A DNA stretch of 64,000 bases from a virus (taxonomy: Duplodnaviria; Heunggongvirae; Uroviricota; Caudoviricetes). Made by a program: the position numbers and the translations under genes. Positions 19,085 to 45,352 of this stretch are shown piece by piece; within the stretch, counting starts at the first letter, position 1, and each line of letters opens with the position of its first letter. The stretch spans positions 1 to 64,000 of the IMG/VR virus record IMGVR_UViG_3300047560_001287. The stretch is one strand, 5' to 3'. The notes under the pieces were generated by a model that ran no database searches, was not told the origin of the DNA, and worked only from the letters and a program-made list of their open reading frames with translations.

Positions 19085-19936
19085 ATGTTTTTAATTTTTA
19101 TCAGCATTCTTGTATTGATTGCCGCAACAGTAGCAAGTAAATTGTTTTTACAAAAAGCGAGCCCTGGCTTTGCAGGTGGTCTTTTGTTTATGATTGTTGT
19201 AATTGCGTTTGAATCAATCACTGTTGTTCCAGCCGGTCATCGTGGTGTTCAAGTAACAATGGGTACTGTTAACCCAGTTGTTTTAGAAAGTGGTTGGCAG
19301 TTTGTTAACCCTATCTCAAGTGTTAAAAACGTGAACGTACAAATTCAACGTGCAACGTATGAAGGTGCGGCGGCAGGTACTAAAGACTTGCAACAAGTTC
19401 ACACTGATATCACAACCAACTATCACTTGAGTCCAGAGAAGGTAGCTGTTATCTATCGTGACTTTGGTCTTAACGTAGTTGACAAGGTTCTTGCACCTAG
19501 CTTGAACGAAGCATTCAAGTCTATCACTGGTCACTATACAAGTGAGGAATTGATTACAAAACGTGATGAAGTATCACAGAAAATCCTTGAACATGTTCGT
19601 GTGAAGGTTGCACAGTTTGACATTCAAATTGATAACGTAAGTCTAGTTAACTTTGGCTTTAGTAAGAGTTACCAAGAAGCTATTGAGCAAAAAGTTATTG
19701 CAACACAGCAAAAACAAAAGGCTGAACAAGACTTGGAACGTATTAAAGTTGAAGCCGCAAGTCGTATCGCACAAGCTGAAGGTGAAGCCAAAGCTATTGC
19801 AATTCAAGCAAGTGCTATTCAAAGTCAAGGTGGTCAACAATACGTGCAACTACAATGGATCGAAAAGTGGGACGGCAAAATGCCCAACACAGTGGTCAAT
19901 GGTAGTCAAGGTATGATGCTCAACGTAGGTAAGTAA
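19085..19936 (+). CDS. SPFH/band-7 (prohibitin/HflK-like) membrane protein
   Basis: N-terminal TM then ITVVPAGHRGVQVTMG and coiled-coil QQKQKAEQDLERIKVEAA. Confidence 0.8.
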   Translation: MFLIFISILVLIAATVASKLFLQKASPGFAGGLLFMIVVIAFESITVVPAGHRGVQVTMGTVNPVVLESGWQFVNPISSVKNVNVQIQRATYEGAAAGTKDLQQVHTDITTNYHLSPEKVAVIYRDFGLNVVDKVLAPSLNEAFKSITGHYTSEELITKRDEVSQKILEHVRVKVAQFDIQIDNVSLVNFGFSKSYQEAIEQKVIATQQKQKAEQDLERIKVEAASRIAQAEGEAKAIAIQASAIQSQGGQQYVQLQWIEKWDGKMPNTVVNGSQGMMLNVGK

Positions 19937-26438: not shown

Positions 26439-27065
26439 ATGGAACAGTACTCAATAATAGGTATCAGTGGTGCCGTCGATCCTTTTCTAGTTGAAACATT
26501 TCACAAGCTAGGAGTTTCAGCTACATACAACGTGAGCAAACCATTATCTGACCATCAAACTGCAATCATTGTTTCATATGGTCATGGAGGTTTTGCTTGG
26601 ACGATGACCTCACATTTTCTTTCACACGTTCGTAAATTAACACCCTCTAACTTCACTGATTGGAAAAGACATTGGGTCGGTGAAGGTGACATATCATGTA
26701 AAGAAGATATCACGCCCGAACGTTGGGCTAGACATGTTTTAGTCAGTCATAAACATATTGGTGCAAAAGAACCATTGAACGGGTTGTTTGTTGAATTAGA
26801 AAAACGAATCAACAATGATAATTGCCCTAGACATGAAATCAAACTTGAAGATATCGTAACAGACCCTGAGAAAGTTTTGTCACAGATTAGTCAAATTCTC
26901 AACAAAGAAATACCCGATGATGTACGTTCCTTCTTCCTGTCAGCGTTGAAAAACAAGAAGGAAATCATGGCTCCCTGGATGAATACTTTAGTACTACAAA
27001 ATAATAATTCCCGAAACTTGACAATAAATCACTTTGGCTATACAATTGACTTATTGATTGATTAA
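26439..27065 (+). CDS. divergent member (H) of the sulfotransferase-fold-like paralog family
   Basis: N-terminal IIGISGAVD Gly-rich strand. C-terminal DPEKVLSQISQILNKEI...FF..L....EIMAPW shares the family motif. Confidence 0.45.
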   Translation: MEQYSIIGISGAVDPFLVETFHKLGVSATYNVSKPLSDHQTAIIVSYGHGGFAWTMTSHFLSHVRKLTPSNFTDWKRHWVGEGDISCKEDITPERWARHVLVSHKHIGAKEPLNGLFVELEKRINNDNCPRHEIKLEDIVTDPEKVLSQISQILNKEIPDDVRSFFLSALKNKKEIMAPWMNTLVLQNNNSRNLTINHFGYTIDLLID

Positions 27066-30049: not shown

Positions 30050-31399
30050 ATGTCGGCATCGTGGATTCGTAAGTTGAATGAAAGTGACAGTCGCCTTCAT
30101 AAAGAAGATGTGCTCAAACAAGCACTTGAGGCAACTGTTCTTGGCTCTATCAATGCTAAGATTTTCTTGGGCTTTCTCAAAGCCTGCTACAATCCCTACG
30201 TGACATTTGGTGTTAAGCAAATCCCTGAATCAATTGGAATCACTGGTGCAGAGAATCCTTGGGATCAATTCAATGAGTTAATGTTAGACTTGTCACAACG
30301 TAAGTTGACAGGTCACGCCGCACGTGATGCTATTCAAGCAACAATGGAATTGTTTGATAGTGAAGAATGGAACACATTCTTAGCCCCTGTACTACGCCGT
30401 GACATGCGATGCGGTATTAGTTCTACTACAATCAATAAAATCTGTAAAAAGACTGACTATGAGATTCCAGTCTTTGGTTGTCAACTAGCAACTAACAGTG
30501 AAGGGCGCCCCGAAATGAAGGGCACTAAACGACTTGAGCCTAAGTTGGATGGTGTTCGTGCGTTGTTCATGGTCATCCCTGCTGATGACGGTGAAGTGAC
30601 TGTAATTTGTTTCAGTCGCAATGGTAAAGTGTTTGATAACTTTACTCACATTGAAGAACAACTCCAGAAAAGTTATGTGAAGATTGTTCGTGCTTGCAAC
30701 GGTGTGGATCAAGGTCGCAGTCTCGTTAACGGTTTCGTACTTGACGGTGAAGTGATCGGCAACAGCTTCCAAGAGTTGATGCGACAAGCACGCCGCAAAA
30801 CTGCTGTTCAAGCTGAGGATTCTGTTCTCAATGTGTTTGACATTGTTCCTCTTGATGACTTCCGTCGTGGTCATTGGAATGCTCAGTTGCGTAAGCGTAT
30901 TGCATTGCTTGATGCTATGCGACCAGTCGTTGACAATCTAACCAACGTTGAATTGTTGCCACATATCATGGTTGACTTAGACACTGCCGCAGGTCGTGAC
31001 CAACTTGAACGTTATGCACAAGATAATGTCAAAGCAGGCTTTGAAGGCATTATGATTAAAGAAATGGAAGCACCATATCAGTGCAAACGTTCGACAGACT
31101 GGATGAAGTGGAAGCCTGTTATCACTGTAGATTTGGAGGTGATCGGTGTTGAAGAAGGTACTGGACGTAATGAGGGACGCTTGGGAGCACTTGTTTGTGC
31201 TGGTGTGGATGACGGAAAGGAGATTAGTGTCAATGTTGGTAGTGGTTTTTCTGATGCTGACAGAGATACTTATTGGCGTGATAGCCGTTATGTCATTGGT
31301 CGTACTGCTGAAATCTTGTGCGATGTGATTACACAGAATCAAGACGGTACTTACAGTTTGCGATTCCCTCGCTTTGTAAGATTTAGGGACGATAAATGA
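30050..31399 (+). CDS. lig: ATP-dependent DNA ligase
   Basis: AGGAG RBS. KLDGVRAL (KxDG adenylation motif), EGIMIK, LDGE. Confidence 0.85.
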   Translation: MSASWIRKLNESDSRLHKEDVLKQALEATVLGSINAKIFLGFLKACYNPYVTFGVKQIPESIGITGAENPWDQFNELMLDLSQRKLTGHAARDAIQATMELFDSEEWNTFLAPVLRRDMRCGISSTTINKICKKTDYEIPVFGCQLATNSEGRPEMKGTKRLEPKLDGVRALFMVIPADDGEVTVICFSRNGKVFDNFTHIEEQLQKSYVKIVRACNGVDQGRSLVNGFVLDGEVIGNSFQELMRQARRKTAVQAEDSVLNVFDIVPLDDFRRGHWNAQLRKRIALLDAMRPVVDNLTNVELLPHIMVDLDTAAGRDQLERYAQDNVKAGFEGIMIKEMEAPYQCKRSTDWMKWKPVITVDLEVIGVEEGTGRNEGRLGALVCAGVDDGKEISVNVGSGFSDADRDTYWRDSRYVIGRTAEILCDVITQNQDGTYSLRFPRFVRFRDDK

Positions 31400-31489
31400 T
31401 TCTATTCTATGTGATTATGACATGTTATGCCATATTAAATATTTTGATATTATCAGTATTTACCTTAGAAACTTATTTGGATTTAAAAA

Positions 31490-31720
31490 ATGAATGAACG
31501 AATCCAAGAACTTTCAGACAAGGCAAAGAAAAGTGTGCCACACGGTATTAGTGTAGACAAGTGGATCGAAACCTATAATGAAAAGTTCGCCGAATTGATT
31601 GTTAGGGAATGTGCTAGGGTTTTGACTCAACATGGAACTTATTTTTCCGGTGAAGGTGAACCATATCATTATGCGGCAAGTTTGATTGAAGAACATTTCG
31701 GAGTTAAAAATGAAAACTAA
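31490..31720 (+). CDS. hypothetical protein (76 aa)
   Basis: ORF. Confidence 0.4.
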   Translation: MNERIQELSDKAKKSVPHGISVDKWIETYNEKFAELIVRECARVLTQHGTYFSGEGEPYHYAASLIEEHFGVKNEN

Positions 31721-32144
31721 AACAGTTGAAGCATTTGATTGGCAACAAGATGTTGAGCCTGTTCTCCGTGCCAATTTGAATGAATTACTTGTCGCTAAAG
31801 GTATTGAACCACTTGACCAACTTCACGGCGGTTCATTCTTAGATGGCAAGTGGGTAGGTGTATTAGAATCAAACGACTATCGAAACTATTGGCATGCTTA
31901 CATCGAATTGTGGGGTGAGAAGTTACACAACGATAGTTATCAAACAGTGTGGTTCAATGACCCGACTGATGACACGGAATGGGATTGGTATAAAGGACAT
32001 TTGCGTGAATGGGCTAATCATATCTATCGCAATTACAATCACACTGATCCTAACTGGACAGATGATTTGGTTGATGCTATGCGTAAAGTTGTAGCGGAAC
32101 ATTTTAACCATGATGAACCTGTTGTATTTTGGTGGTGCTGGTAA
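31710..32144 (+). CDS. hypothetical Trp-rich protein (144 aa)
   Basis: GGAG RBS. ATGA-type overlap. Confidence 0.4.
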   Translation: MKTKTVEAFDWQQDVEPVLRANLNELLVAKGIEPLDQLHGGSFLDGKWVGVLESNDYRNYWHAYIELWGEKLHNDSYQTVWFNDPTDDTEWDWYKGHLREWANHIYRNYNHTDPNWTDDLVDAMRKVVAEHFNHDEPVVFWWCW

Positions 32145-32153
32145 GGAGTTAAA

Positions 32154-32261
32154 ATGACAAATGATCCTATTATAAATTATATGTGTGCGGCAATTATCGC
32201 AGTTGGCTTTGGTTATGTTTTGTGGTTCCTACACAAATATTGCGTAATAAGAGATAAATGA
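32154..32261 (+). CDS. small membrane protein (35 aa)
   Basis: TAAGGAG RBS. Single TM. ATGA overlap into next gene. Confidence 0.3.
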   Translation: MTNDPIINYMCAAIIAVGFGYVLWFLHKYCVIRDK

Positions 32262-33031
32262 ATCATAACGGATTTACTATATCGTTTCCAGCGGGTGCTA
32301 GGGGAAGATTGATTGCTAACGTATTAAATGGCATGGTCAATAAAATTGATGATCCAATAGAATACACTGAGTACGGTTCCGCACACGTTCACCAAGAAAA
32401 ATCATATATTAGAAAAATAGATGATCCACTGATATTTAAACCTCAATCTGATATGGTGTATGAATGTGTACCTATATTTATAACACATGACTTTCCTGAC
32501 ATTCCTGTTTGGGATAAAAATATTTATTTTCAGAATAACAAAGTTATTGTTATTAACGTAGATGATGAAGATATCAATGAAATTTTACTGAATCAAATTA
32601 TAAAAAACATTTTTCCAAGAATTGATTCATTCGTAAATGATAAGCCACTTGAGAGCGAGGAACTACAATTATTATATGCATATCGTAGAGTTTTTTCAGT
32701 TCATGGTATAGTTTTTGATAAACAACTATTATCTGATTCTGAACGAATCACATACCTGCTCAAAACAGGATTAACCAATAGGTATTTAAGGGCTAAAATT
32801 AATGCACAATTTTATGGCACTGCGCTACAAGACAGTGAACGTATTTTAAATTTAAAATACAAGCATTTGTTTTCTAAAGAAAACGGTAAATACCGTACAT
32901 TGGAAAAGATGGCTAAATGGTTAAAAATTGAGTATAACGATACAGTTGAAAAATCTTTTGAACATTATGACAATATCAAATACGACATTTTTCAAAAGTA
33001 TTGTCCTTGGTTTTTACAAGAAAACCCATAA
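32258..33031 (+). CDS. sulfotransferase-fold-like paralog A
   Basis: N-terminal ISFPAGARGRLIANVL P-loop-like. GSAHVH. C-terminal family motif. Confidence 0.5.
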   Translation: MNHNGFTISFPAGARGRLIANVLNGMVNKIDDPIEYTEYGSAHVHQEKSYIRKIDDPLIFKPQSDMVYECVPIFITHDFPDIPVWDKNIYFQNNKVIVINVDDEDINEILLNQIIKNIFPRIDSFVNDKPLESEELQLLYAYRRVFSVHGIVFDKQLLSDSERITYLLKTGLTNRYLRAKINAQFYGTALQDSERILNLKYKHLFSKENGKYRTLEKMAKWLKIEYNDTVEKSFEHYDNIKYDIFQKYCPWFLQENP

Positions 33032-33034
33032 ACA

Positions 33035-33062
33035 TTGCTATTAGAATTAATACTGTTACAAT
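33035..33062 (+). promoter_or_regulatory. possible promoter TTGCTA-16-TACAAT
   Basis: In 58-bp gap before 33090. Confidence 0.3.
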
Positions 33063-33089
33063 TTATTAAATATACAGAGGGCTTAAACT

Positions 33090-33653
33090 ATGGTTACAAT
33101 CGTTAAACATGAATGGCATCAACATGATCGCCAATACGCTATTGAACTTGATGAAGCATTGTTGAGTGAGATTTATCCTGATTTGGATGAAGATGAAATT
33201 GCAACCATGCTTAAACAAATCGAAGATGGTGAAGTAGACTTTGAGGAAGTCATCAATGACGCATACGACAATGATGTTGACCTTGAGTGGGACTTTCAAT
33301 ATGATGATTGCTGGACTGACCGCAAGGGCGGTTATGATGTTACTTATGAGTTGGGTGATGAAGATAGTTGGGTAGAACCTGAAAAGGAACCAGAACCAAC
33401 ACATAAATGTACGAAGTGTCGTTGGCAGGGCGGTAAATATGAAACACTTACACAGTATTACCGAGAAGATGGTACAGTGATTGAAGATTATTACAGCAGT
33501 GACGAAGAATCTCACCATGACAAAGAAGTTTGTCCAATGTGTGACAGTGATGTTGAAATGACAGAACACGGCAAAGAAGAAAAAGCACGATATAACAAAT
33601 TGATGGCTGAGTTTGATGCTGAGTTAGAGGCGGCTGGCGAGGATGAGGATTAA
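33090..33653 (+). CDS. highly acidic protein with C-terminal zinc ribbon
   Basis: AGAGGG RBS. CTKCRW...CPMCDSD. Confidence 0.45.
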   Translation: MVTIVKHEWHQHDRQYAIELDEALLSEIYPDLDEDEIATMLKQIEDGEVDFEEVINDAYDNDVDLEWDFQYDDCWTDRKGGYDVTYELGDEDSWVEPEKEPEPTHKCTKCRWQGGKYETLTQYYREDGTVIEDYYSSDEESHHDKEVCPMCDSDVEMTEHGKEEKARYNKLMAEFDAELEAAGEDED

Positions 33654-34368
33654 TAAGTATACGTTAAGATTTTACTTTTTTGCAATTGCTAGTGTTATCG
33701 GATTACTGATGTATGACGGTACACTAGCAAAAGCCATTTCATATTTCATTTTCTTTTTATTCATAGGTAGATTATCGGGTTTAGGATACCATCGATGGTT
33801 ATCTCATAAACAACTAGAACCCAACATATTTGGTCGTATTGTATTATTGTGGTCCATGGTCTTTGTGGGAACAGCAAAGCCAGTTGATTATGTTGTGATG
33901 CATCGTTCACACCACAAATATTCTGACACAGACAAAGACCCCCATCCACGCTCTATCGGACTGTGGAGATTGCTAACATCGCAATATAATGAAATTTCAC
34001 TTACTGTACCCATCAAAGATATCATACGCAAACCAGATGTTATGTTTGTTAACAAATATTATTGGTTGTTATACTTTGTCAATCTAGGGATATTGTTTAT
34101 CATTGATTATCAAGTTGCGTTATTAAGTTTTGCATTGTTTAACTTGTCTGATATAGTATTTTCATCATTTTTTAATTACTATGCACATGACGATAATGGA
34201 CCTGTAAACATGCCACTATGGACTAACTATGCAATTTTTGCAGGTGAGAACTTACACTTAAATCATCACATTGATCCTAGTAATCCCAACTTTGGTTCTG
34301 CATCAAAATACAATATTGATTTGTTGTATTACTTTACTAAAGTATTTTTCAACCCGATTAGTAGATGA
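33643..34368 (+). CDS. membrane fatty-acid desaturase (delta-9 / DesC-like)
   Basis: Three histidine boxes: HRWLSH, HRSHHKYSDTDKDPH, HLNHH. Several TM helices. Confidence 0.75.
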   Translation: MRINKYTLRFYFFAIASVIGLLMYDGTLAKAISYFIFFLFIGRLSGLGYHRWLSHKQLEPNIFGRIVLLWSMVFVGTAKPVDYVVMHRSHHKYSDTDKDPHPRSIGLWRLLTSQYNEISLTVPIKDIIRKPDVMFVNKYYWLLYFVNLGILFIIDYQVALLSFALFNLSDIVFSSFFNYYAHDDNGPVNMPLWTNYAIFAGENLHLNHHIDPSNPNFGSASKYNIDLLYYFTKVFFNPISR

Positions 34369-35114
34369 TTTATATTGTTAACTACCAAGAAGGGTCACGT
34401 GGATCATTCATATCAGATTTATTGGGATTACTGCTCAATGACGATGCAACAGCTATTCTAGAAATTGATCCTATATATGGTACTGCTGGTCGAGTGTTTT
34501 TAGATATCACCGAAATTGCAAATGAAGAATATCCAAACAATTATTTAAAGTTACAATTTGATAACAATTTTGGATTAGTCTCGGGTGTTCCATTAGATTT
34601 GATCGGGTTTGAAAAATTTACAAATGTATATCCTGATTGGGAAGCACTATATATTGTATATGAACCAGAAGAAAAGTTAACAGTGGATGTGTTAAACATC
34701 TACAAAAACTTTTACAAAGACGAGCCAATCATTGCAAATTACTATTGGGCTTTTTATCTAAAAAATAAAAATATTTTAAGTAGAGAAATTGCTAATTTAA
34801 AAGAATTAGATTCCCAAGAACTAAAAAAGTTTATTGAATTATATTGGGAAACGGATAATGGAATTAACAAGTTCAATAAGAAATTTTCAGCAGACTATTG
34901 GGATAGTTTTGTAAGTTCAATCCCAGAACAATATCAAAACAGAATTCATAGAATAAATTTTTCAGATATAACAAACAACAAAGAAAAAATCTTAAATATA
35001 TTAAGTGAGATTACTGGTAAAACCATCACAGCAAATGTAGTTGCTAGTTATGACCGTTATTTGCAGTATCAAAATCTACCCAAAAAATTAATGGATATAA
35101 CATGCACGACTTAG
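34365..35114 (+). CDS. sulfotransferase-fold-like paralog B
   Basis: NYQEGSRGSFISDLL N-terminus. C-terminal FSDITNNKEKILNILSEITG...YDRYLQYQ. Confidence 0.5.
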   Translation: MIYIVNYQEGSRGSFISDLLGLLLNDDATAILEIDPIYGTAGRVFLDITEIANEEYPNNYLKLQFDNNFGLVSGVPLDLIGFEKFTNVYPDWEALYIVYEPEEKLTVDVLNIYKNFYKDEPIIANYYWAFYLKNKNILSREIANLKELDSQELKKFIELYWETDNGINKFNKKFSADYWDSFVSSIPEQYQNRIHRINFSDITNNKEKILNILSEITGKTITANVVASYDRYLQYQNLPKKLMDITCTT

Positions 35115-35311
35115 TAGGCAAATCATACACATTTGATGATGGCAGTAAAATTGAAATCATACAGATAAAACTCACAGATGAAAACCGAGGTAAGTTTCTC
35201 GTTACATATTTAATATCACAGGGTCCTAATTTACCTCGTAAATTGGTAATGGGCATAGATGAGTTTGTAAACTCGTTCGGGCATTTATTTGGAATCATAG
35301 AGAATGAGTAG
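35102..35311 (+). CDS. hypothetical protein (69 aa)
   Basis: ORF between paralogs. Confidence 0.3.
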   Translation: MHDLVGKSYTFDDGSKIEIIQIKLTDENRGKFLVTYLISQGPNLPRKLVMGIDEFVNSFGHLFGIIENE

Positions 35312-35957
35312 AGCCATTATTTTTCCAGGTGGTGCTGGTGGTAATCATTTGCGTTGGTTGTTGTACTTAGATAAGTCAATCGATAGCGATTTATCCATGG
35401 ATAAAAAAATAGATTTTGTATTGAATAAAATCTATTCAGATCAGCGTTCCTTTTATAATTGGTTGCCGTATGAAGCTACATGGAGATTTGATGATAAGTT
35501 TGAATCATTCATTAAAATACTACACGAACCTAAAGACGATAAACCCGAATATAAGTCAGTGTTCTTGTCATATGATGATTGGAATATCCCATTTGAACAC
35601 TATAGTTGCCTAACTTCTTGCTTTTCTTCTAAAAGAAGCTATGATCTATACTATAATTTTCTCAAAGATTTTGACCGCAAGGTTTCAAAACTCATTGTCA
35701 TTGATGAAAATAAATTAGTGATTAAATCAGATGTGTTTTTTAATGAGGTGTTAGACAAGCAATTTTATACACAAATAGTTGATTTTTTTGATTTTGAAAA
35801 TCATTATGATGAAGCCGCAATCTTACACAAGAAATGGTATGATACGAGAAATAGGGCTAAAAAAGAATTCTATGAGTTTTACAGCAGTAAATTCTGGCAA
35901 GATTTTATGGCCCGAATGCGTGGAGATGTACAGAGAAATAAGGGACTACTACCCTAA
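35304..35957 (+). CDS. sulfotransferase-fold-like paralog C (divergent)
   Basis: IIFPGGAGGNHLRWLL N-terminus. ATGA overlap. Confidence 0.45.
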   Translation: MSRAIIFPGGAGGNHLRWLLYLDKSIDSDLSMDKKIDFVLNKIYSDQRSFYNWLPYEATWRFDDKFESFIKILHEPKDDKPEYKSVFLSYDDWNIPFEHYSCLTSCFSSKRSYDLYYNFLKDFDRKVSKLIVIDENKLVIKSDVFFNEVLDKQFYTQIVDFFDFENHYDEAAILHKKWYDTRNRAKKEFYEFYSSKFWQDFMARMRGDVQRNKGLLP

Positions 35958-35969
35958 TAAATATATGTT

Positions 35970-37535
35970 ATGCTTAAAAAAATTATAAATCTTTCCAATC
36001 TTACCTTATTGGTAGCACTGTCATTGAGTACAGTAGCTGCCTATTATAGTATCATAGGCTTAACTGCTATCTTTGCAGGAGCTGTTATCCCTATTATCGT
36101 CATGGGTTCTATCCTCGAAGTAGGCAAAATCACCACGACAGTTTGGTTACGTAAATACTGGCATCGTTGTGGCTGGGTACTAAAGATGTACTTGGTACCC
36201 GCTGTTGTATTGCTTGCGTTATTGACAAGCATGGGTATCTTTGGTTTCCTATCAAAAGCACACATGGATCAAGGTATTGTTTCGGGTGATAGTCAAGCCA
36301 AACTTGCATTGTATGACGAAAAGATTAAGACACAAAAAGATAACATTGAGACTGCACGTAAAGCATTAACACAAATGGATGCACAAGTTGACCAGATGTT
36401 GGGTCGAACTGACAATGATAAAGGTGCAGAACGTGCTGTTGCTATTCGTAGACAACAAGCAAAAGAACGTACTCTATTACAAAATGATATTGCAAACGCA
36501 CAAAAAGAAATCAGTAAACTAAACGAAGAACGTGCTCCTATTGCGGCTGAGAATCGTAAAGTAGAAGCAGAAGTAGGTCCTATCAAATATATTGCGGCTC
36601 TTATATATGGAGACAATGCTGACCAAAACATGCTTGAAGCCGCTGTTCGTTGGGTTATTATCTTGTTAGTTGTGGTGTTCGATCCACTTGCGATTGCGTT
36701 AGTTCTTGCGGCTAACCAAAGTAAGGATTGGGACGATAACGATGATGTTGAAGAAGAAAACAAACTACGTGAAAAAGTTCAACATGAAAAAGAAGTTCAA
36801 ACTATATTAGAAGATGAACCTAAATATGAACCAGATGATGGTCCACTAACAACTGACCAATTAGAGCAAATACAAGAAAGCGCAAAAGAAGAATCTATAT
36901 TAGATAAGCATCCGTATTTGACTAAACCATTCACACATTTTAAAAACACAACACCAATGGTTTATCAACCAGAACCCACACCAATTGATGATGTAGTTGA
37001 AACCCCCGTAGAAGAACCAGAGCCAGAGCCAGAAGTAGTAGCTGATGATGGCAAAAAAATACTTGCCGCAGGTATCGATGATATTGAACGTCCCGGTGAT
37101 TATCTAACTGCTCCAACTGAAATACAAACTGAAGGTGTTACAAAAGAAAAACCATTTAAAGAACTAGAAGGCGGCTATGTAGTCTATGATGGTAAGCACA
37201 TGGCTAAAGATGTATTGCAAGGAATGCATCCTGAGTTATTCAAATTAACTGCGGATTCTAGCAGATCAGTTAACACTAATTTTGGAACAGCATTTCCTGC
37301 TGTTGCACAAAAAGGTGATACTTTCGTTCGTGTTGACGTATTACCAAACCGTGTTTACAAGTTTGACAGCAAACGCTGGATTGAAGTGAACAAACAGGTT
37401 TCGGACACATATTTACACGATGAGGAATATATCAAATATCTTATCGAAATGATAGAAAATGGGCAGTACGACATAGACCTATTATCCGACAAGGAACGTT
37501 CGGAAATAGAACAGCATCTTACCCAAAAGCGTTGA
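35970..37535 (+). CDS. membrane-anchored coiled-coil protein (521 aa)
   Basis: Three N-terminal TM helices. Long coiled-coil. Fourth TM near residue 220. Acidic Pro/Glu-rich linker. Confidence 0.5.
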   Translation: MLKKIINLSNLTLLVALSLSTVAAYYSIIGLTAIFAGAVIPIIVMGSILEVGKITTTVWLRKYWHRCGWVLKMYLVPAVVLLALLTSMGIFGFLSKAHMDQGIVSGDSQAKLALYDEKIKTQKDNIETARKALTQMDAQVDQMLGRTDNDKGAERAVAIRRQQAKERTLLQNDIANAQKEISKLNEERAPIAAENRKVEAEVGPIKYIAALIYGDNADQNMLEAAVRWVIILLVVVFDPLAIALVLAANQSKDWDDNDDVEEENKLREKVQHEKEVQTILEDEPKYEPDDGPLTTDQLEQIQESAKEESILDKHPYLTKPFTHFKNTTPMVYQPEPTPIDDVVETPVEEPEPEPEVVADDGKKILAAGIDDIERPGDYLTAPTEIQTEGVTKEKPFKELEGGYVVYDGKHMAKDVLQGMHPELFKLTADSSRSVNTNFGTAFPAVAQKGDTFVRVDVLPNRVYKFDSKRWIEVNKQVSDTYLHDEEYIKYLIEMIENGQYDIDLLSDKERSEIEQHLTQKR

Positions 37536-37589
37536 TCTTTTTTCCGTTTTGCTTTACACTCTATAAACATTAACTCAACGGAGAAATAA

Positions 37590-38216
37590 ATGAAATCCCT
37601 TATCGCATGTATTGCTACGGTAATGCTTGTTGGTTGCGGCACTGTCAAAACCAACGACAACGAGCCTATTCGCAATCAGAAACTTTCTACCTCATTTGTG
37701 GCAGAAGGAATTAAAATTGAATCTGATTGTGCGTGGTATACAATCGACAAATCAAATTGCAATATTGTTTCCATTGAATCAGTAGGTACTGCTCCTACAA
37801 ATGGTAACACTATCAATAACCGTCAAACTGCATTCACACGTGCAGATTTGCGGGCACGTGCTAACATTCGTCACTTCTTACAAGAAGAAATCACTAGTTC
37901 ACGTGTTACAAACACCATTGCAAAGAACGTAGAGAAAGCTAACGACCGCATTAAGACTAAAATTAATGAAGGCGACAGTGTTTCTATGAGCGATGACGAA
38001 GCTAAAAAGGATACTAACTACGCTATCCGTGAAAATAGTAATGACACTGCCCATCAAGTAACAGAAACTATCCGCGCAAACGCTGTGGGTATCTTGCGTG
38101 GCTTTAGAGTCATTAAGCAGGAAGTAACAGGTCCACAAGAAGTTTCAGTGACTATTCGCTGGGACTTGGATAGCGACCGCACTGCTAGTCAATTACGTAA
38201 ACGTTTCGGTAATTAA
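37590..38216 (+). CDS. lipoprotein (208 aa)
   Basis: GGAGAAATAA RBS. MKSLIACIATVMLVGC lipobox. Confidence 0.55.
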   Translation: MKSLIACIATVMLVGCGTVKTNDNEPIRNQKLSTSFVAEGIKIESDCAWYTIDKSNCNIVSIESVGTAPTNGNTINNRQTAFTRADLRARANIRHFLQEEITSSRVTNTIAKNVEKANDRIKTKINEGDSVSMSDDEAKKDTNYAIRENSNDTAHQVTETIRANAVGILRGFRVIKQEVTGPQEVSVTIRWDLDSDRTASQLRKRFGN

Positions 38217-38218
38217 AC

Positions 38219-39196
38219 ATGCTACGGCTACTAGCAATAGTGGCATGTTTAATCTTGACTTCTTGTGCAAGCACACAAACCGATAGTTATATTCGTGTAA
38301 CCGGTGAAGGTGCAACACAAGAACAAGCAAAACAAAATGCCTTCCGTGAAGCTGTACAGATACGTGTAGGTTCTGTAGTTCTTAGTGAACGTGAGAGTTC
38401 ATTGCGTAAGTTAGAACGTGATGACATTAATGTTTATAGTGCAGGCTATGTTGACGATTACAAAGTTGTTTCGGTAGAACGAACAAATGGAAAAGTCAAA
38501 ATAACACTTGATGTTTTGGTTGCAGACAGTAAATTGGTCAACAACCGTCTAGTCTCAGGTAAAGTTACTAATCAAATCGAAGGTGACCGAGCCAACACAA
38601 ACTATCGCACGTTCATGGATCAAAAACAACGTGGCGATAAATTACTAAATTCAGTACTCAAGACATATCCTGAGTCTGCCTATATAGTTCAACAGAAAAA
38701 CTATAGCGTGAGCGTTAATGCCTATCGCAATATTGTGTTACAAGTTCCATATAAACTAACTTGGAACTATGATTACATCGTTGCATTTAACGAGGCACTT
38801 AACTTAATCCAAGACAATAAATTTGGCTATTTGCAACCAGCACCTAGTAATGTTATCGTCATGGCAAAAGACCCCAAAGATTTTGTATTAGGGGAACGCA
38901 AACATTTTAAATTCAACGATGTGCCATTACTTGACTACATGAAAAGTATGATGACAGACAATCGTGAAATTAGATTGATGATGACATTGCGAGACAGTGA
39001 CAACCGAGTTATGTACAAGGGTTGCTGGCCGATACAATCAACATTTTATGTTATGGGTGAGCCTAGAAATTTATTGATTTACGGTAACACAAAAGAAGAG
39101 GGGATATTGCAATTAGTTATCAATTCAGAGTATAATCAAGTATTAGAGAAATCTAGAAACATAGAGGTGTCAGTTGTTCCACGCATCAAGTGCTAA
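38219..39196 (+). CDS. lipoprotein (325 aa)
   Basis: MLRLLAIVACLILTSC lipobox. Confidence 0.55.
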   Translation: MLRLLAIVACLILTSCASTQTDSYIRVTGEGATQEQAKQNAFREAVQIRVGSVVLSERESSLRKLERDDINVYSAGYVDDYKVVSVERTNGKVKITLDVLVADSKLVNNRLVSGKVTNQIEGDRANTNYRTFMDQKQRGDKLLNSVLKTYPESAYIVQQKNYSVSVNAYRNIVLQVPYKLTWNYDYIVAFNEALNLIQDNKFGYLQPAPSNVIVMAKDPKDFVLGERKHFKFNDVPLLDYMKSMMTDNREIRLMMTLRDSDNRVMYKGCWPIQSTFYVMGEPRNLLIYGNTKEEGILQLVINSEYNQVLEKSRNIEVSVVPRIKC

Positions 39197-39234: not shown

Positions 39235-40437
39235 ATGTCACTTGAATCACTAAACCATTGCTCATTTTGCGGAAATCATAAAGATAAAGTTAAAAAACTT
39301 ATAGTAGGTGAGGACGTTGCTATTTGTAGCGACTGTATCGATTTATGCACACAATTAATCGAAGATGACGCTACCGTTGCCGATCCTGACCAAAAGAAAG
39401 AAGAAGTCAAGTATGACCCTATCGCTATCAAGGCGTACTTAGACCAGCATGTTATCGGACAAGATAGTGCTAAAACTGTATTGAGCGTTGCTATCGCTAA
39501 CCACTATAAGCGAATCACACACCCGCCCAAAGACTTAGAAATAGCTAAGGGTAATGTTCTTATTGTGGGGCCCACTGGTAGTGGTAAAACATTACTTGCT
39601 AAGACAGTTGCCAAGTATCTCAAGGTGCCCTTTGTCGTAGCAGACGCAACAAGTTTAACCGAAGCTGGTTATGTAGGTGATGACGTTGAATCAATGATTA
39701 GTATGCTAGTCAATGCCGCAGGTGGTGATGCTAAATTAGCAGAACGTGGAATTGTGTTTGTTGACGAGATTGACAAAATTGCACGTAAGGGCGAATCAAC
39801 TAGCGTTACCCGTGACGTGTCGGGTGAGGGCGTTCAGCAAGCATTACTCAAGTTAGTTGAGGGCACAGTCTGTCGTATTCCTGCAAGCGGTGGTCGCAAA
39901 CACCCAGGTGGTGAAATGCTAGAAATCAACACAAAGAATATTCTGTTCATTGCTGGTGGCGCATTCGTTGGATTGAAGGAAATCATCACAAATAGACAAC
40001 ATGGAACTAGTATTGGCTTTGGGGCAAATATCAGAGATAAGCGCAAAGAGGGTGAGTTAGCACAAGTAAGCCCCGACGACCTAACTAAATTTGGAATGAT
40101 TCCTGAATTTATCGGTAGATTCACGACTACTGTAAGTATTAAAGAACTGTCCAAAGACGAGTTAAAACATGTCCTGACCAATGTGAAAAACAACTACATT
40201 GAGCAATACAAGTACCTGTTCAGCATTGATGAAATTGAGTTGGAGTTTGCTGATGACGGACTTGGCCAGATTGTTGACAATTGCTTGAAACTGAAAACGG
40301 GTGCCCGTGGTCTACACACTGAAATCGAGAGGGTCCTAATGCCCCATATGTTCAATTTGCAGAAATATCGTGAAAGTAAAATCAAAAAGATAAATATTAA
40401 TCAGGAGCAAGTTTTAGAACCAAAAGCATTGATATGA
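39235..40437 (+). CDS. clpX: ATP-dependent Clp protease ATP-binding subunit ClpX
   Basis: Zinc-binding CSFCG...CSDC. Walker A GPTGSGKT. Pore-1 GYVG. ClpP-docking IGFGA loop. Sensor GARGL. Collinear with E. coli ClpX. Confidence 0.95.
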   Translation: MSLESLNHCSFCGNHKDKVKKLIVGEDVAICSDCIDLCTQLIEDDATVADPDQKKEEVKYDPIAIKAYLDQHVIGQDSAKTVLSVAIANHYKRITHPPKDLEIAKGNVLIVGPTGSGKTLLAKTVAKYLKVPFVVADATSLTEAGYVGDDVESMISMLVNAAGGDAKLAERGIVFVDEIDKIARKGESTSVTRDVSGEGVQQALLKLVEGTVCRIPASGGRKHPGGEMLEINTKNILFIAGGAFVGLKEIITNRQHGTSIGFGANIRDKRKEGELAQVSPDDLTKFGMIPEFIGRFTTTVSIKELSKDELKHVLTNVKNNYIEQYKYLFSIDEIELEFADDGLGQIVDNCLKLKTGARGLHTEIERVLMPHMFNLQKYRESKIKKININQEQVLEPKALI

Positions 40438-40655
40438 GTATAAAGGGTAGACGAGTAATAGTACAAGACGGGAATGTTGAAAAAGCATTACGCAAATTCA
40501 AAAAGAAGATTACTGAACAAGGATTGATTCAGGAAGTCCGCGACCGTCAAGAATTCGTCAAACCCACTGTCAAGCGAAAACTTGCTAAAGGACAAGCCAA
40601 GCGTAGATGGCAAAAATACTTGCGTGACCAGAGCTTGCCCAAGAAACTATATTGA
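40434..40655 (+). CDS. rpsU: 30S ribosomal protein S21
   Basis: ALRKFKKKITEQGLIQEVRDRQEFVKPTVKRKLAKGQAKRR matches bS21. ATGA overlap with clpX. Confidence 0.85.
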   Translation: MSIKGRRVIVQDGNVEKALRKFKKKITEQGLIQEVRDRQEFVKPTVKRKLAKGQAKRRWQKYLRDQSLPKKLY

Positions 40656-40762
40656 CCTAAATATTAGATTTTTTTGCGTATTTTTTATAAAATAAATACG
40701 TATTCAGATGCCGATGGTCGGGTCTGAAACATGTCATACTTGCTTATTAAAGGAGAAAACAA

Positions 40763-41200
40763 ATGACAAAAACACTATCCCTTCGTTCCCTCGACATTCC
40801 GTCAATTCACAAATTTGGTATCGGTTTCGATAACATGTTTGACGATTTGATGCGATTAAACAGTCAACAATCACTAAACTATCCCCCATACAACATCGTC
40901 AAAAATACCGAAGACTCCTTCGATATTGAGATTGCTGTATCTGGCTTCAGTGAAGGTGAAGTTGAGGTCAATCTTGACAACCGAGTATTGACTGTTAAGG
41001 GTCAGAAGAAGGAAGACTTGGTAGCCGAATACCTACACAAGGGTATTAGCACACGTGATTTCGTGCGTGAGTTTACGCTAGCAGAGCACGTTGAAGTTAT
41101 CAATGCTTCACAAAAAGACGGCATTCTAACTATTCAACTAGAACGTGTTGTTCCAGAAGAAAAGAAGCCAAAAGCAATTGCTATTAATTACACTAAATAA
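40763..41200 (+). CDS. ibpA: small heat-shock protein (Hsp20/IbpA family)
   Basis: GGAGAAAACAA RBS. Alpha-crystallin domain: PPYNIVK..FDIEIAVSGF..EVEV..LTVKG, GISTRDFVREF, ILTIQL. Confidence 0.85.
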   Translation: MTKTLSLRSLDIPSIHKFGIGFDNMFDDLMRLNSQQSLNYPPYNIVKNTEDSFDIEIAVSGFSEGEVEVNLDNRVLTVKGQKKEDLVAEYLHKGISTRDFVREFTLAEHVEVINASQKDGILTIQLERVVPEEKKPKAIAINYTK

Positions 41201-41210
41201 TATAATAGCT

Positions 41211-41239
41211 GTGAGTAGTCGTTAGGCTACTCACTTTTT
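41211..41239 (+). terminator. rho-independent terminator after ibpA
   Basis: GTGAGTAGTC-GTTA-GGCTACTCAC stem then TTTTTC. Confidence 0.6.
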
Positions 41240-41264
41240 CAACTATTAGATAAGTGATATTAAA

Positions 41265-41576
41265 ATGTCTAAAACGCAAACAGAAACAAAAATCAAAATT
41301 AAACCCAATCTAGCGTTACAAGAACCACCGTTGTACAAAATCATTTATATGAATGACGATGTGACTAGTATGGAATTTGTAGTGGGTAGCTTAATCGATT
41401 ATTTCAACTACACCGAAGACACAGCCTCGAATATCACTGTAAATATTCACGAGCAGGGTTCTGCGGTCGTTGCAGTACTACCATACGAAATTGCCGAACA
41501 AAAGGGAATTGAAGTTACGTTAGATGCACGTAGCCAGGGATATCCGTTACAAGTCAAAATCGAAGCAGAAGGTTAA
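41265..41576 (+). CDS. clpS: ATP-dependent Clp protease adaptor ClpS
   Basis: PPLYKIIYMNDDVTSMEFVVGSL...VNIHEQGSAVVAV matches ClpS core. Confidence 0.8.
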   Translation: MSKTQTETKIKIKPNLALQEPPLYKIIYMNDDVTSMEFVVGSLIDYFNYTEDTASNITVNIHEQGSAVVAVLPYEIAEQKGIEVTLDARSQGYPLQVKIEAEG

Positions 41577-42265
41577 ACTTCTATTCGTTTCGCCCAATAA
41601 GGCTTTCTTCCAAAATAAGAGTTATTGATATAGTTGATACCGTTGATATGTGTATCAACTATTTTTCTATACGTCCCGTAAACCCAATGTGTTACTTTCT
41701 TTTCAGTATCAACTGGTAACACCATGTCTAGGGAAAGTTGAGTTACTGTTGTTTCAGGCTCTTCACCGAAATACAGAACTGGACCTGGAACACTATTAGA
41801 AACTAGGATAACGCTTTTTACGTCCAAGTGTTTCTGTAATCTTTCTAGTGTTGATTTGAGGTAAGATAAATCCTCATGTCTTGCGTTTTCAATTGCTTGT
41901 TCAGAATCAAAATCTGTAGGTACTGTATTTCCGTACCAGCCGTTTGCCCCTGCAATTGCTATACCATCTATGATTACAACGTGATGGTGTAGATACGCTG
42001 TATTCTTTACTCCTCTACATATCTTCTGTAATTCACTAGTTCTTTTATCTATGTCAATTACATTATTATATTCCAGAGATCCAGAGATATAAAATACCCC
42101 TTGATAAAATTTTGACAAATGAAGTAGGGTTTGTCTAATCGTTCTTAATTCGTCACTAATGTTTCCTGCAATTATGCAGTATAGACTAGTAGCTTTACCC
42201 TCCCAATTGAAACTATCCTCAGGGGATAGATTCAAATCGCTGATTACATCAAACCCTATTTTCAT
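41573..42265 (-). CDS. hypothetical protein (230 aa); possibly degenerate metallophosphoesterase fold
   Basis: ISDLNL / AGNISDE / ISGSLEYN loosely echo calcineurin-like motifs but metal ligands are not conserved. Confidence 0.3.
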   Translation of the reverse strand: MKIGFDVISDLNLSPEDSFNWEGKATSLYCIIAGNISDELRTIRQTLLHLSKFYQGVFYISGSLEYNNVIDIDKRTSELQKICRGVKNTAYLHHHVVIIDGIAIAGANGWYGNTVPTDFDSEQAIENARHEDLSYLKSTLERLQKHLDVKSVILVSNSVPGPVLYFGEEPETTVTQLSLDMVLPVDTEKKVTHWVYGTYRKIVDTHINGINYINNSYFGRKPYWAKRIEV

Positions 42266-42585
42266 TACTTTGCGACGGTCATTTTTGGCTTTTTAGGCGC
42301 CTTTGGTTTTGCTGTCTTTTCTGCTTTTGGCTTAGCAGGTGCTTTAGCTTTCTTTGGCTTAGCTGTCATTGCGGCCGCAGGTGCTTTAGTAGCGTTTGGA
42401 TTATCTGCGTGTACAGCCCATTCTTCTGGGGTCAACTTGTGTAGACCTACACAGTTTCCTGTCTGACTGCGACCACACCCACATTTAGCAGGACCAGCTT
42501 GAACCGGCGTTTCTACTTTATATGGTGCTTCAGGTGCAGTTTCAGATGTACCGAAACCAAACAACTTCTTTAGATAGTTTAACAT
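42265..42585 (-). CDS. small Cys-cluster protein with AKPK-repeat basic tail
   Basis: CGCGRSQTGNCVGLH then KPKKAKAPAKPKAEKTAKPKAPKKPK. Confidence 0.45.
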   Translation of the reverse strand: MLNYLKKLFGFGTSETAPEAPYKVETPVQAGPAKCGCGRSQTGNCVGLHKLTPEEWAVHADNPNATKAPAAAMTAKPKKAKAPAKPKAEKTAKPKAPKKPKMTVAK

Positions 42586-42652
42586 GTTATTCTCCTTACA
42601 GTTTATTTATCTACTCATACATTACGTCACTTTAATCTTTAAATAAAATATT

Positions 42653-43144
42653 ATGCTCAGAAAAAACGTGCTTTTAGATTTGATGCAGGAAGAACCCCCT
42701 AGCATTAGTTATCAAAAACGCCTTGGATATCGAACTGATATCTATGAGGTCATATACCTATACCGACTGATAAACAAAGCTGTTTTCAAAAATGCACTAG
42801 AAATGCCAGAAATCGAGGTAGTTCCTAGATGTAGGAAATACTGGGGTATGTGCTATGCATCATGGGAAAGATTACCCGGTCGTAGAAGTTATTGCAAAAT
42901 ACGATTGATGGACAAGTGGTATTCGCATCATTGGTTAATATCAACATTAGCACATGAAATGTGCCACCAGTATCAGTGGGATATACAGGGTGCTCAAAGA
43001 CGTAGTAAGGGCAAAGAGCCTATTATGAGTCATGGTCCCAGTTTCTTTGTTTTCCGAGAAAAATTAAAGAAGCATGGCATTCCACTAAAAAGCGCACACA
43101 GTAAACGCAAATGGTTCAAGACACAAGATTTGTTTAAAACATAA
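42653..43144 (+). CDS. SprT-like zinc metallopeptidase domain protein
   Basis: LAHEMCHQY HExxH motif in SprT-like context. Confidence 0.55.
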   Translation: MLRKNVLLDLMQEEPPSISYQKRLGYRTDIYEVIYLYRLINKAVFKNALEMPEIEVVPRCRKYWGMCYASWERLPGRRSYCKIRLMDKWYSHHWLISTLAHEMCHQYQWDIQGAQRRSKGKEPIMSHGPSFFVFREKLKKHGIPLKSAHSKRKWFKTQDLFKT

Positions 43145-43163
43145 AATCGCATAAATACACATT

Positions 43164-44690
43164 ATGCGTGATATTTTAAACAACCTAGAACTATTAACAG
43201 AAAGTACCGGTTTAGCAGGACGTAAACCAGGTGACTTATTCCGTAACTCACACGGTGATGAAATTGTATTCCAGAGTATTCAATTTTTCCCCGAAGGTGG
43301 TGGCAAATATACGCCTGAACAATTAGACCAAGCAATTGCAGACGTTGAACAACAAGTAGGCGACATTGATTGGCAGAATCAAAAAACTGCACGAGCAGGT
43401 GGATTCGGTATAGCAACATTCACCGGCGCACAAGGTAATATGGTTATAGGTCGTTATTTGCAAGAAATTAATCCAAACATAAAGGATAATTACATTGCAA
43501 ATAAAGTAGGTGATTTCAAGTACGCAGGCAAAGCCGCAGAAAAAATTCAATCAGGTTTAAGCCCGCAAGATTTATTAGGTGATAGAATTGATTTAACTAT
43601 CGCTGATGTTATGAACCAATTAGCAATGAGCTTGGGTACTGATAACCCTCTATACGCTGTAGCACATAGATTAGCGACAGGTAGTCCATTACCAGTAACG
43701 TTCCCGACACCAGAAGGATATAGCTTTACTGCTTTCCGTGATTACTTCTGTGAAATTTTACAACCAATCGCATTACAAAAAGGTCAATACACAGGTAACG
43801 CAGGTGAAGCCGCTGAGAAATTTATGGGTGGTTCATTTGAGAACACATTAATTTCTTTTGACGAAAGCAAAACAGCAGGTTTAAGCGATAGTATATTGAC
43901 TAATGATAGCGGACAATTTATTAAAATTAGTACCAAAGGTGGCAAGGGTGCAACAGCTAGTGCTAAAAATTTGTTAGATACAATTGAAGAATTGAAACTA
44001 ACAAAAGAGGGCAAGAAACTGTTAAGCAAATACAAAGACGTTATTGATATGTTGCAACAAATCAAAGATGCAGGTCAAGCAGGATCACCTTTATTATTAG
44101 GTTTGCGTTATGGCATCATTGATGAGAAAGATGCAAAATCAATTGAAGAATTAAAAGGTGTGGGTCCAGTTAATTTAACACACATTGCTACTATGGGTCT
44201 AAGCAAGAACTTACAAAAACTTGCTAACCAGCGTGGTACAGATAACCCAGATAGTGTTAATTTATTCTATCACTTGATTGCCGCTGTAGCACACAAAGCC
44301 GCAGACGAAGTGAACAAGCATACAAACTTTAGTAAGGCAGCTGCCGAAATTTTAAACAACGGTGCGTTGGTACAAGTTTACACTTCGGCAAAAGAAAATA
44401 AAGATTCATGGACACTAGGTGAATTCGACACAGTTTACCCAGGTGACTCAATCAAAGGTGTTTACCTATCAGCAGGTAAAACATATTACAGTACAGGTAT
44501 CAAAGGAAACTTTACATTCAAAATTGATAAAGGTAAGGGAGTTCCGAAAGATGAAGATGAAGGTGAGAAGGGTGAAGCTACAAAATCAAGTGGCAGATCA
44601 ACTCGCCGTGGATTAGAAAAAGCCGCACAACAAATCACTAATCCACAAAATAAACCCACTGAACGTGGCATGCGTAGCACACGTAAATAA
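43164..44690 (+). CDS. hypothetical protein (508 aa), basic C-terminal tail
   Basis: Long ORF. Function unrecognised. Confidence 0.5.
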   Translation: MRDILNNLELLTESTGLAGRKPGDLFRNSHGDEIVFQSIQFFPEGGGKYTPEQLDQAIADVEQQVGDIDWQNQKTARAGGFGIATFTGAQGNMVIGRYLQEINPNIKDNYIANKVGDFKYAGKAAEKIQSGLSPQDLLGDRIDLTIADVMNQLAMSLGTDNPLYAVAHRLATGSPLPVTFPTPEGYSFTAFRDYFCEILQPIALQKGQYTGNAGEAAEKFMGGSFENTLISFDESKTAGLSDSILTNDSGQFIKISTKGGKGATASAKNLLDTIEELKLTKEGKKLLSKYKDVIDMLQQIKDAGQAGSPLLLGLRYGIIDEKDAKSIEELKGVGPVNLTHIATMGLSKNLQKLANQRGTDNPDSVNLFYHLIAAVAHKAADEVNKHTNFSKAAAEILNNGALVQVYTSAKENKDSWTLGEFDTVYPGDSIKGVYLSAGKTYYSTGIKGNFTFKIDKGKGVPKDEDEGEKGEATKSSGRSTRRGLEKAAQQITNPQNKPTERGMRSTRK

Positions 44691-44703
44691 TTAACCAAAT
44701 CTA

Positions 44704-44732
44704 TTGTAGTTATAAAAACTCTCTGTTATACT
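44704..44732 (+). promoter_or_regulatory. possible promoter TTGTAG-17-TATACT upstream of clpP
   Basis: In 68-bp gap. Followed by TAAGGAGAG RBS. Confidence 0.4.
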
Positions 44733-44758
44733 ATAGGTATCACTAATTAAGGAGAGTT

Positions 44759-45352
44759 ATGAGTTTAGTTCCAATCGTTGTTGAATCAACAAGTAAAGGC
44801 GAGCGTAGTTATGACATTTATAGTCGCCTTCTAAAAGACCGTGTCATTCTCCTAGAGGGTGAAGTTCATGACCACATGGCAAACTTAATTGTTGCCCAAC
44901 TATTGTTCTTGGAAAGTGAAGATGCGACAAAAGACATTTCTATGTACATTAACTCGCCCGGTGGTAGTGTTACCGCAGGCATGGCGATCTACGATTGTAT
45001 TCAGTTTATTAGTCCCGATGTACAGACGATTGTTATGGGTCAGGCATGTAGTATGGGTTCTCTCCTCGCACAAGCGGGAGCGCCAGGCAAAAGGTTTATG
45101 CTCCCCAATGCACGACACATGATTCATCAGCCATCGGGTGGTGCTCGTGGTATGCAAAGTGATATTGAAATCAGTTACAAGGAAATCACTTACTTGAAAA
45201 AGCGACTAACTGAAATCTATGTTAGCCACAATTCAAAGGGCAAAACATACGAGGACTTTGAACGTGACATGGATCGTGATAAGTTCATGTCAGCACAAGA
45301 GGCGTTAGAGTACGGATTGATTGATGAAATCGTAACAAAACGCAATGCTTAA
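44759..45352 (+). CDS. clpP: ATP-dependent Clp protease proteolytic subunit ClpP
   Basis: Ser-His-Asp triad contexts: [45 protein letters not shown]. Confidence 0.95.

Follow-up and report, generated by a model that had tools for sequence, protein, structure and literature searches.

A seven-member phage protein family that is probably a strongly diverged branch of the sulfotransferase fold

The stretch of DNA analysed here (the window) comprises 64,000 nt, positions 1–64,000 of IMG/VR record IMGVR_UViG_3300047560_001287, from a large, uncultured phage of the Caudoviricetes. Two of its open reading frames (ORFs), A and B, form a protein family with five further ORFs. This family is best explained as a strongly diverged family of the sulfotransferase fold whose members are accessory enzymes of group transfer, probably sulfotransferases in which the donor site has changed, and the probability of this explanation is put at roughly 0.55. 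Its paralogy, its predicted fold, its set of conserved residues, the absence of the canonical residues for binding 3′-phosphoadenosine 5′-phosphosulfate (PAPS) and its variation in copy number are direct results. Positions are numbered over the whole window, (+) and (−) give the strand, residues are numbered as in A, and members without a letter are named by their first position. The seven family members are as follows.

26439–27065 (+): 208 amino acids (aa), short and strongly diverged, with the His-bearing segment missing
A, 32258–33031 (+): 257 aa, complete member of the sulfotransferase-fold family
B, 34365–35114 (+): 249 aa, degenerate member
56204–56971 (+): 255 aa, complete member
57500–58261 (+): 253 aa, degenerate member (H43 to Tyr, H77 to Arg, Y237 to Leu)
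58274–59047 (+): 257 aa, complete member, 38 % identical to 59005
59005–59802 (+): 265 aa as listed, complete member

Judged by sequence comparison, the paralogy of A and B is far beyond chance. In an all-against-all blastp search of the window ORFs, A matches 56204 (E 1.4e-15), B matches 59005 (E 2.4e-7) and 26439 matches 59005 (E 1.2e-5), while 56204 connects to 58274, 59005 and 57500. An iterated hidden Markov model (HMM) search over the same ORFs recovered exactly seven members and nothing further; 26439, of which only the C-terminal half aligns with the family, was found at E 3.7e-7 and then at 7e-45 upon iteration, and its orthologs of 208–211 aa are numerous. A family profile of A and 110 metagenomic relatives, with B left out, gave E-values of 5e-45 for A, 8e-30 for B, 1.5e-72 for 56204, 1.9e-25 for 57500, 3.5e-76 for 58274, 1.4e-79 for 59005 and 4.5e-11 for 26439. 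The members, 15–38 % identical to one another, are old, individually conserved paralogs. The original prediction had counted eight copies in 64 kb and had treated A, B and a third protein, C, as a single paralog family. Seven copies are recovered by sequence, an eighth being reached only if C is added; A and B do belong together, and C is not a detectable relative by sequence.

The ORFs of 58274 and 59005, as listed, overlap by 43 bases. The true start of 59005 is probably an internal Met near 59029, because homologs (e.g. P0039) begin closer to the ‘FP.T.TY’ motif. A tandem pair, 61423 and 62043 (61423–62780; 207 and 245 aa, 37 % identical), is kept in the syntenic contig L006 and gives weak sub-threshold matches to DUF6473; considered as ninth and tenth members, the two proved unrelated to the family.

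The AlphaFold model of A, computed from the aligned paralogs and a small number of homologs, reaches a predicted local distance difference test (pLDDT) score of 89.6 and a predicted template modelling (pTM) score of 0.88, and the predicted structure has a sulfotransferase-type α/β fold. A Foldseek search of BFVD with this model returned uncharacterised proteins of uncultured Caudovirales as nearest neighbours, with annotated viral sulfotransferases ranking next as weak matches. Among PDB sequences the top match is the CurM sulfotransferase (E 6e-3 with a 7-sequence profile, 1.1e-3 with the 110-sequence profile), followed by SULT1C2 (E 0.13) and the OLS sulfotransferase domain (E 1.6). All three matches cover the same 39–42 residues, the strand-YxD[IL]-helix motif; the family consensus here, [IL]-x-[YF]-x-[DE]-[IL], corresponds to the strand-Y-x-D-[LIM]-helix element of sulfotransferases. 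A second SULT1C2 domain, scoring −0.9 bits, places the family ‘tH..P’ opposite K-T-H-L-P and the family K-I-I-x-I strand opposite KIIYVARN. Sub-threshold Pfam matches occur in 6 of the 110 relatives (5 to Sulfotransfer_1, 1 to Sulfotransfer_3; E 1e-4 to 1e-2). Alignment of the family with human SULT1A1 by hhalign joined only the YEDM motif. These weak sequence links agree with each other and with the model-based fold search. A sub-family profile, A6, found no sulfotransferase among PDB sequences, and weak matches of family members to CHGN, YdiH, LytR and HNH were judged to be chance.

The sulfotransferase-fold interpretation had originally been drawn from an N-terminal glycine-rich loop and from a C-terminal Y/F-x-D-L...D-P...L..L..G segment, both said to be shared by A, B and C. 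The loops named there do occur (FPAGARGRLI at A 10–19, QEGSRGSFI at B 8–16 and FPGGAGGNHL at C 7–16). The C-terminal motif of the A/B family, Y/F-x-D-[LI]...L..L, is real and does line up with sulfotransferases, the CurM match (E 1e-3) falling over the motif that had been predicted; it is shared across that family, with His for Asp in A itself, and C contributes structural resemblance only. The interpretation is therefore upheld in part, by the CurM motif and the sub-threshold Pfam matches, and is narrowed in that C stands outside the family and B is probably inactive.

Conservation was counted over the 110 relatives. Residues G13, G16, H43, H77, N112, K116, L215, Y234 and Y237 are conserved in at least 90 %, K95 is conserved in 87 %, and P80, the [IL]-x-[YF]-x-[DE]-[IL] strand and a C-terminal P-W are also well conserved. 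On the model of A the conserved residues map to the loop that follows strand 1, the stretch that comes after helix 1, the end of strand 73–76, the helix after strand 95–101, strand 196–200 and the last long helix. The elements matching these positions line the donor/acceptor cleft in sulfotransferases. The glycine loop, with the consensus F-x-x-G-[STA]-[SCG]-G-x-F and variable positions before G13, is in the right place. H77 is present in 104 of the 110 members, in the motif P-x-[ILV]-x3-H-x2-P at the end of strand 73–76.

Within the window, the full residue set is kept by A, 56204, 58274 and 59005, except that A has Phe at 234; A retains G13, G16, H43, H77, K95, N112, K116 and Y237. B retains the glycine loop, K116, Y234 and Y237, with Gly at 43 and without H77 and N112. 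This His-less state is common to its orthologs (P0180 and a 240-aa protein of the related phage contig L004), so B is a maintained lineage and no decaying copy. Because B and its orthologs are without both near-invariant histidines, B is unlikely to be active as an enzyme in the manner of the complete members.

Catalysis, donor, acceptor and biological role we infer as follows. On sequence and model, A, 56204, 58274 and 59005 are most likely cytoplasmic group-transfer enzymes with a sulfotransferase layout. The G13-x-x-G16 loop after strand 1 would cradle the phosphosulfate end of an adenosine-based sulfate donor, either PAPS or a relative such as adenosine 5′-phosphosulfate (APS). H77, at the inner-strand end, would act as general base on an acceptor hydroxyl or amine, while the strand-YxD[IL]-helix element would pack on the adenine and the C-terminal tyrosines would lie around the adenosine. 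K116 and N112 would replace the lost basic and Ser residues. The donor site would be a rebuilt one, because the canonical PAPS residues are replaced by H43, N112, K116, Y234 and Y237. The members without the histidines, B, 57500 and 26439, are probably non-catalytic partners or serve another role. Two metagenomic relatives, P0038 (586 aa) and P0041 (701 aa), consist of two fused family domains, which hints that family members may act in pairs. The target would most likely be a glycan or lipid of the host envelope or of the virion, because the members come and go between close relatives, the phage carries sugar-nucleotide and glycosyltransferase genes, and host polysaccharide islands carry sulfotransferases; in marine hosts, hypervariable islands for surface polysaccharides bring together glycosyltransferases, epimerases and sulfotransferases (10.64898/2026.04.03.716430).

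Several observations weigh against this reading. None of the window members reaches a curated Pfam or NCBIfam threshold or has a credible PHROGs match, and the sequence-level links are all weak and limited to ~40 residues. In place of a [KR]-x-G-[ST]-[ST] loop the family has a loop with no conserved Lys/Arg, a residue that is nearly universal in the donor loop of PAPS sulfotransferases. No conserved Arg/Ser is found at the junction of strand 95–101 and helix 103–126, where N112 and K116 stand instead, and the C-terminal GxxGxxK or RKGxxGDWK-type loop is absent, its place being taken by Y234, Y237 and Q/R241. The equivalence of H77 to the catalytic His is based on motif position and on the SULT1C2 alignment at −0.9 bits. 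Among the window ORFs that were scanned, neither an APS kinase nor an ATP sulfurylase could be detected; ~40 kb of the source contig lie outside the window. Finally, gene context points to no acceptor; in the phage group L008–L013 the copy lies between a DnaB-like helicase and a virion protein. That the Arg/Ser motif for the 3′-phosphate is missing had been stated in the original prediction, together with a caution that the donor may not be PAPS. The motif is indeed missing, as is the donor-loop Lys/Arg, and the caution is justified and extends to the 5′ site.

A profile search of 1.84 billion cluster representatives returned 542 at E ≤ 1e-3 and 318 at E ≤ 1e-10, most of them 240–290 aa long, with a few two-domain fusions. 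The commonest type in metagenomes is 56204, the nearest relative of 69 of 148 representatives. All traced relatives stem from assembled metagenomes (JGI, ENA, Logan and one from NCBI), where they are named ‘hypothetical protein’ or, in one case, ‘predicted transcriptional regulator’, and the family lies on phage-like contigs wherever context is known. No match to A, 56204 or 59005 was found by tblastn in 50,697 GenBank phage records, nor to positions 32000–36000 by megablast against GenBank phages, and a low-sensitivity search of 185,579 species genomes with a single peptide pattern found no relative. The conserved proteins of the window have distant GenBank phage matches only, such as the ligase at ~35 % to Bacillus, Lysinibacillus and Vibrio phages. 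One further member (2307–3080 of L007, IMGVR_UViG_GVMAG-M-3300009164-20_000001) is encoded by a 5.4-kb contig that had been assigned to a giant-virus metagenome-assembled genome; either the family extends to eukaryotic viruses or the contig is misbinned.

Related contigs share core genes with the window at 60–90 % identity (ligase, a 421-aa protein, ClpX, S21, HSP20, ClpS and ClpP), and the family members vary between them. The interval from ligase to C holds only an acidic protein like that at 33090 and C in L002 and L003, and the acidic protein, a B ortholog (36 % identity), a small ORF and C in L004 and L005; A and the neighbouring desaturase are missing from this interval in L002–L005. L003 and L016 have a member of the 26439 type, and L004 has none. 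Cluster 2, the group from 56204 onwards, has two copies in the syntenic L006 versus four in the window, where a nucleotidase gene is inserted among them:

56956–57498 (+): NT5C-like 5′-nucleotidase of the HAD family (Pfam NT5C, 31.4 bits against a cut-off of 24.8)

This nucleotidase has no blastp match among the ORFs of the L006 locus. Both L006 copies are nearest to 59005 (39 % and 47 % identity) and flank a homolog of 60033. In L008–L013 a single copy follows a Toprim primase and a DnaB-like helicase and precedes a small virion protein. C is core, and the family members are accessory, located in variable islands and gained or lost between close relatives. The original prediction had proposed a check for copy-number variation in related phages, and such variation is confirmed, with A, B and cluster 2 differing among loci.

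A more radical version of the sulfotransferase reading is unlikely. It holds that the members form a virus-restricted branch from which all PAPS-specific side chains are gone and in which H43, N112, K116, Y234 and Y237 form the new donor site, that the donor is not PAPS and would most simply be APS, and that the phage uses the active enzymes, with the dead paralogs B, 57500 and 26439 as partners, to mark a glycan or lipid of the host surface, or a nucleotide, with a multi-site code of sulfate or other anionic groups. An APS donor would account for the missing 3′-phosphate site. Also improbable is that the same fold uses a non-sulfonucleotide donor or performs other chemistry (phospho-, nucleotidyl- or acyl-transfer, or elimination) with an active site of His, His, Asn, Lys, Tyr and Tyr. 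However, every close structural neighbour uses PAPS, and the parts that have been retained, namely the glycine loop, the strand-His and the YxD, are those serving sulfotransfer.

Action on nucleotides, DNA or a host signalling molecule, by a fast-turnover family for host takeover or counter-defence, is considered quite improbable. It would fit the turnover in presence/absence and copy number between close relatives, the single copy beside primase and helicase genes in L008–L013, the NT5C gene in cluster 2, the dCMP deaminase and 7-deazaguanine genes elsewhere in the window, and the derivation of the fold from nucleotide kinases. However, the members matched no family known from defence or anti-defence in searches that did not include PADLOC, the copy beside the replication genes stands at a module border next to a virion protein, and we know of no sulfated nucleic acid or nucleotide signal. 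The members are very unlikely to be P-loop-type nucleoside or nucleotide kinases, given a GxxGxF loop with no Walker A GxxxxGK[ST], an alignment to kinases over far fewer residues than to sulfotransferases, and a C-terminal YxD strand-helix that is a sulfotransferase feature. Non-enzymatic binding or regulatory proteins, as suggested by the JGI name for A (P0001, the ‘predicted transcriptional regulator’), by a weak NCBIfam LytR match of 57500 (21.8 bits against a cut-off of 375) and by the loss of the conserved histidines in three of seven members, are hardly to be expected when no DNA-binding domain is found and when the fold and the near-invariant His, His, Asn, Lys, Tyr and Tyr are typical of an active site.

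Protein C lies at the right-hand end of the group of genes that contains A and B.

C, 35304–35957 (+): 217 aa, separate core family

Against the family HMM, C scored E 2–4 in the window hmmsearch and went unreported at E ≤ 0.1 with the 110-relative profile. Alignment of the C family with the A/B family by hhalign covers 18 N-terminal columns only, the strand and the glycine loop, at a probability of 57 %. The predicted fold of C is sulfotransferase/P-loop-kinase-like, and its likeness to the A/B family is in fold only. The C family has an invariant FPGGxGGNHxRW loop and an HEP motif following a strand, so C carries its own strand-His-x-Pro motif; the loop reads GGxGGNH, with no Walker A GxxxxGK[ST]. 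A C family profile found no sulfotransferase among PDB sequences. C represents a core family of its own, similar to A and B in predicted fold but not demonstrably their paralog.

Three genes for envelope-type proteins follow directly downstream of C, at 35970–39196, and are likewise kept in L004. The first codes for a membrane protein of 521 aa that matches DUF4407 weakly, below threshold; the products of the next two, of 208 and 325 aa, begin with a lipoprotein-like segment that ends in Cys. All three are possible envelope-directed partners of C.

Three further genes lie between A and C.

33090–33653 (+): 187-aa acidic protein with a Cys-rich C-terminal half (CTKC...CPMC), no assigned function
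33643–34368 (+): 241-aa fatty-acid desaturase of membrane type with three His boxes
35102–35311 (+): 69-aa small ORF between B and C, conserved, no assigned function

The coordinates given earlier for A, the desaturase, B and C were reproduced exactly by the ORF listing. The genes of 33090–37535 overlap or are separated by gaps of at most about a dozen bases, and therefore look co-transcribed; their G+C content is 31–35 % versus ~38 % for the whole window. A promoter and terminator scan of 31300–37700 returned nothing usable. The acidic protein matches no Pfam family above threshold. Its homologs upstream of C in L002, L003 and L004 are 53–77 % identical; they adjoin C in L002 and L003, and a B ortholog and the small ORF intervene in L004. 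The 69-aa ORF has a clearly similar counterpart of 66 aa at the same place in L004 and L005.

The assignment of 33643–34368 as a desaturase holds (Pfam FA_desaturase, 35.6 bits against a cut-off of 29.7, E 1.1e-8). The translation contains the His boxes HRWLSH, HRSHH and HLNHH, by which we take the enzyme to be delta-9 (DesC/SCD)-like, and there is a partial NCBIfam match to the DesA family. It shares the FA_desaturase domain and the three His boxes with known phage desaturases (of cyanophage and of Mosig EXVC030M). Its only GenBank phage match is to Pelagibacter phage Mosig EXVC030M, at 26.5 % identity over 66 % of the protein. It is short, at 241 aa, and is not found at this position in related phages. 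A functional link between desaturase and sulfotransferase-fold family was considered and rejected, since the desaturase is absent from three related phages (L002, L003 and L004) and adjacency alone would speak for it.

The remaining cargo of the window includes a glycan toolkit, which also counts a GNAT:

397–1173: cytidylyltransferase-like protein fused to a mannose-6-phosphate isomerase C-terminal domain
1170–2357: GT1 glycosyltransferase
5819–6280: second, paralogous cytidylyltransferase-like protein
9495–10850: GT1 glycosyltransferase
10847–11671: NAD-dependent epimerase/dehydratase

A 7-deazaguanine (queuosine-precursor) set occupies 4394–9056, and its gene content suggests that the phage modifies its DNA with deazaguanine or supplies preQ:

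4394–5131: GTP cyclohydrolase I (FolE)
6295–6858: QueD/PTPS
6861–7481: YhhQ/Vut_1 transporter
8214–9056: QueE-like radical SAM protein

A proteostasis and translation block at 39235–45352 is conserved in the related phage L004:

39235–40437: ClpX
40434–40655: ribosomal protein S21 homolog
40763–41200: HSP20 homolog
41265–41576: ClpS homolog
42653–43144: SprT-like protein
43164–44690: conserved 508-aa protein, with no match, including by tblastn against GenBank phages
44759–45352: ClpP

Other genes are scattered over the window:

12368–13663 (−): radical SAM protein
13694–14248 (−): Fe/Mn superoxide dismutase
14248–15885 (−): GP88-domain protein
15858–16931: UV endonuclease UvdE
19085–19936: SPFH/Band 7 protein
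52202–52741: dCMP deaminase
53179–53916 (−): D-Ala-D-Ala carboxypeptidase

The superoxide dismutase gene is ~48 kb from cluster 2 in the window, whereas an 82 %-identical ortholog in L006 (13130–13690) stands right after the 62043 homolog; this shift in position points to rearrangement between close relatives.

Among the systems closest to the family are the cytosolic PAPS sulfotransferases of Sulfotransfer_1 (AGAP001425, 7r0o; SOT18, 9m0l; SULT1B1, 2z5f; SULT1C2, 2ad1). These are 290–340 aa long, compared with ~250 aa for the family, which falls below the Pfam thresholds, is without the loop Lys, equivalents of Arg130 and Ser138 and RKGxxGDWK, and has its own near-invariant H43, N112, K116, Y234 and Y237. 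The sulfotransferase domains of CurM and OLS (4gbm, 4gox) are parts of polyketide synthases that sulfate a β-hydroxyacyl group on acyl carrier protein for decarboxylative elimination and have the canonical PAPS residues, whereas the family proteins stand alone and their likeness is limited to one motif. In comparison with P-loop kinases (guanylate, dephospho-CoA, shikimate and thymidylate kinases), the family is without the Walker A Lys-Ser/Thr, has a shorter aligned core and carries sulfotransferase-type C-terminal elements. The family is probably homologous to PAPS sulfotransferases. It shares two of their defining features, the fold and the YxD element, and departs from three, the loop Lys/Arg, the 3′-phosphate residues and the thresholds of curated models; a catalytic His is plausible.

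Sulfotransferases are often counted among viral auxiliary genes, and to our knowledge none has a known role in phages. The original prediction had spoken of an enzyme-like fold with no described phage role; canonical sulfotransferases have already been reported in phages, their function being unclear (PMC10580990). A phage sulfotransferase as such is thus not new. The annotated sulfotransferases of phages and giant viruses (cyanophages S-SRM01, S-SCSM1 and P-SSM7; OM43 phages) are likewise virus-encoded and without an assigned role. However, they pass the Sulfotransfer_1/3 Pfam models, which the window family does not, and multi-copy expansion as in the window is not described for them in the literature examined. 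A tblastn search of phages with human SULT1A1 gave no match, no sulfotransferase is named in the first 50 kb of the P-SSM7 record, and no description of the window family was found in the literature.

Three things are new: a sizeable, unannotated branch, virus-associated so far, whose donor site has been rebuilt; its expansion to seven copies in a single genome, some of them conserved in a His-less state; and the core look-alike C alongside. With the family come several hundred unannotated proteins that escape the standard models. With four complete and three degenerate copies here and fewer in close relatives, it offers a compact comparative system for its role in infection. With the probable catalytic His kept and the PAPS-binding residues lost, it is also a natural test case for a change of donor within the fold. 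Should the donor prove to be APS or another molecule, the members would form a new class of enzymes; with PAPS as donor, the family still widens the range of sequences known for sulfotransferases.

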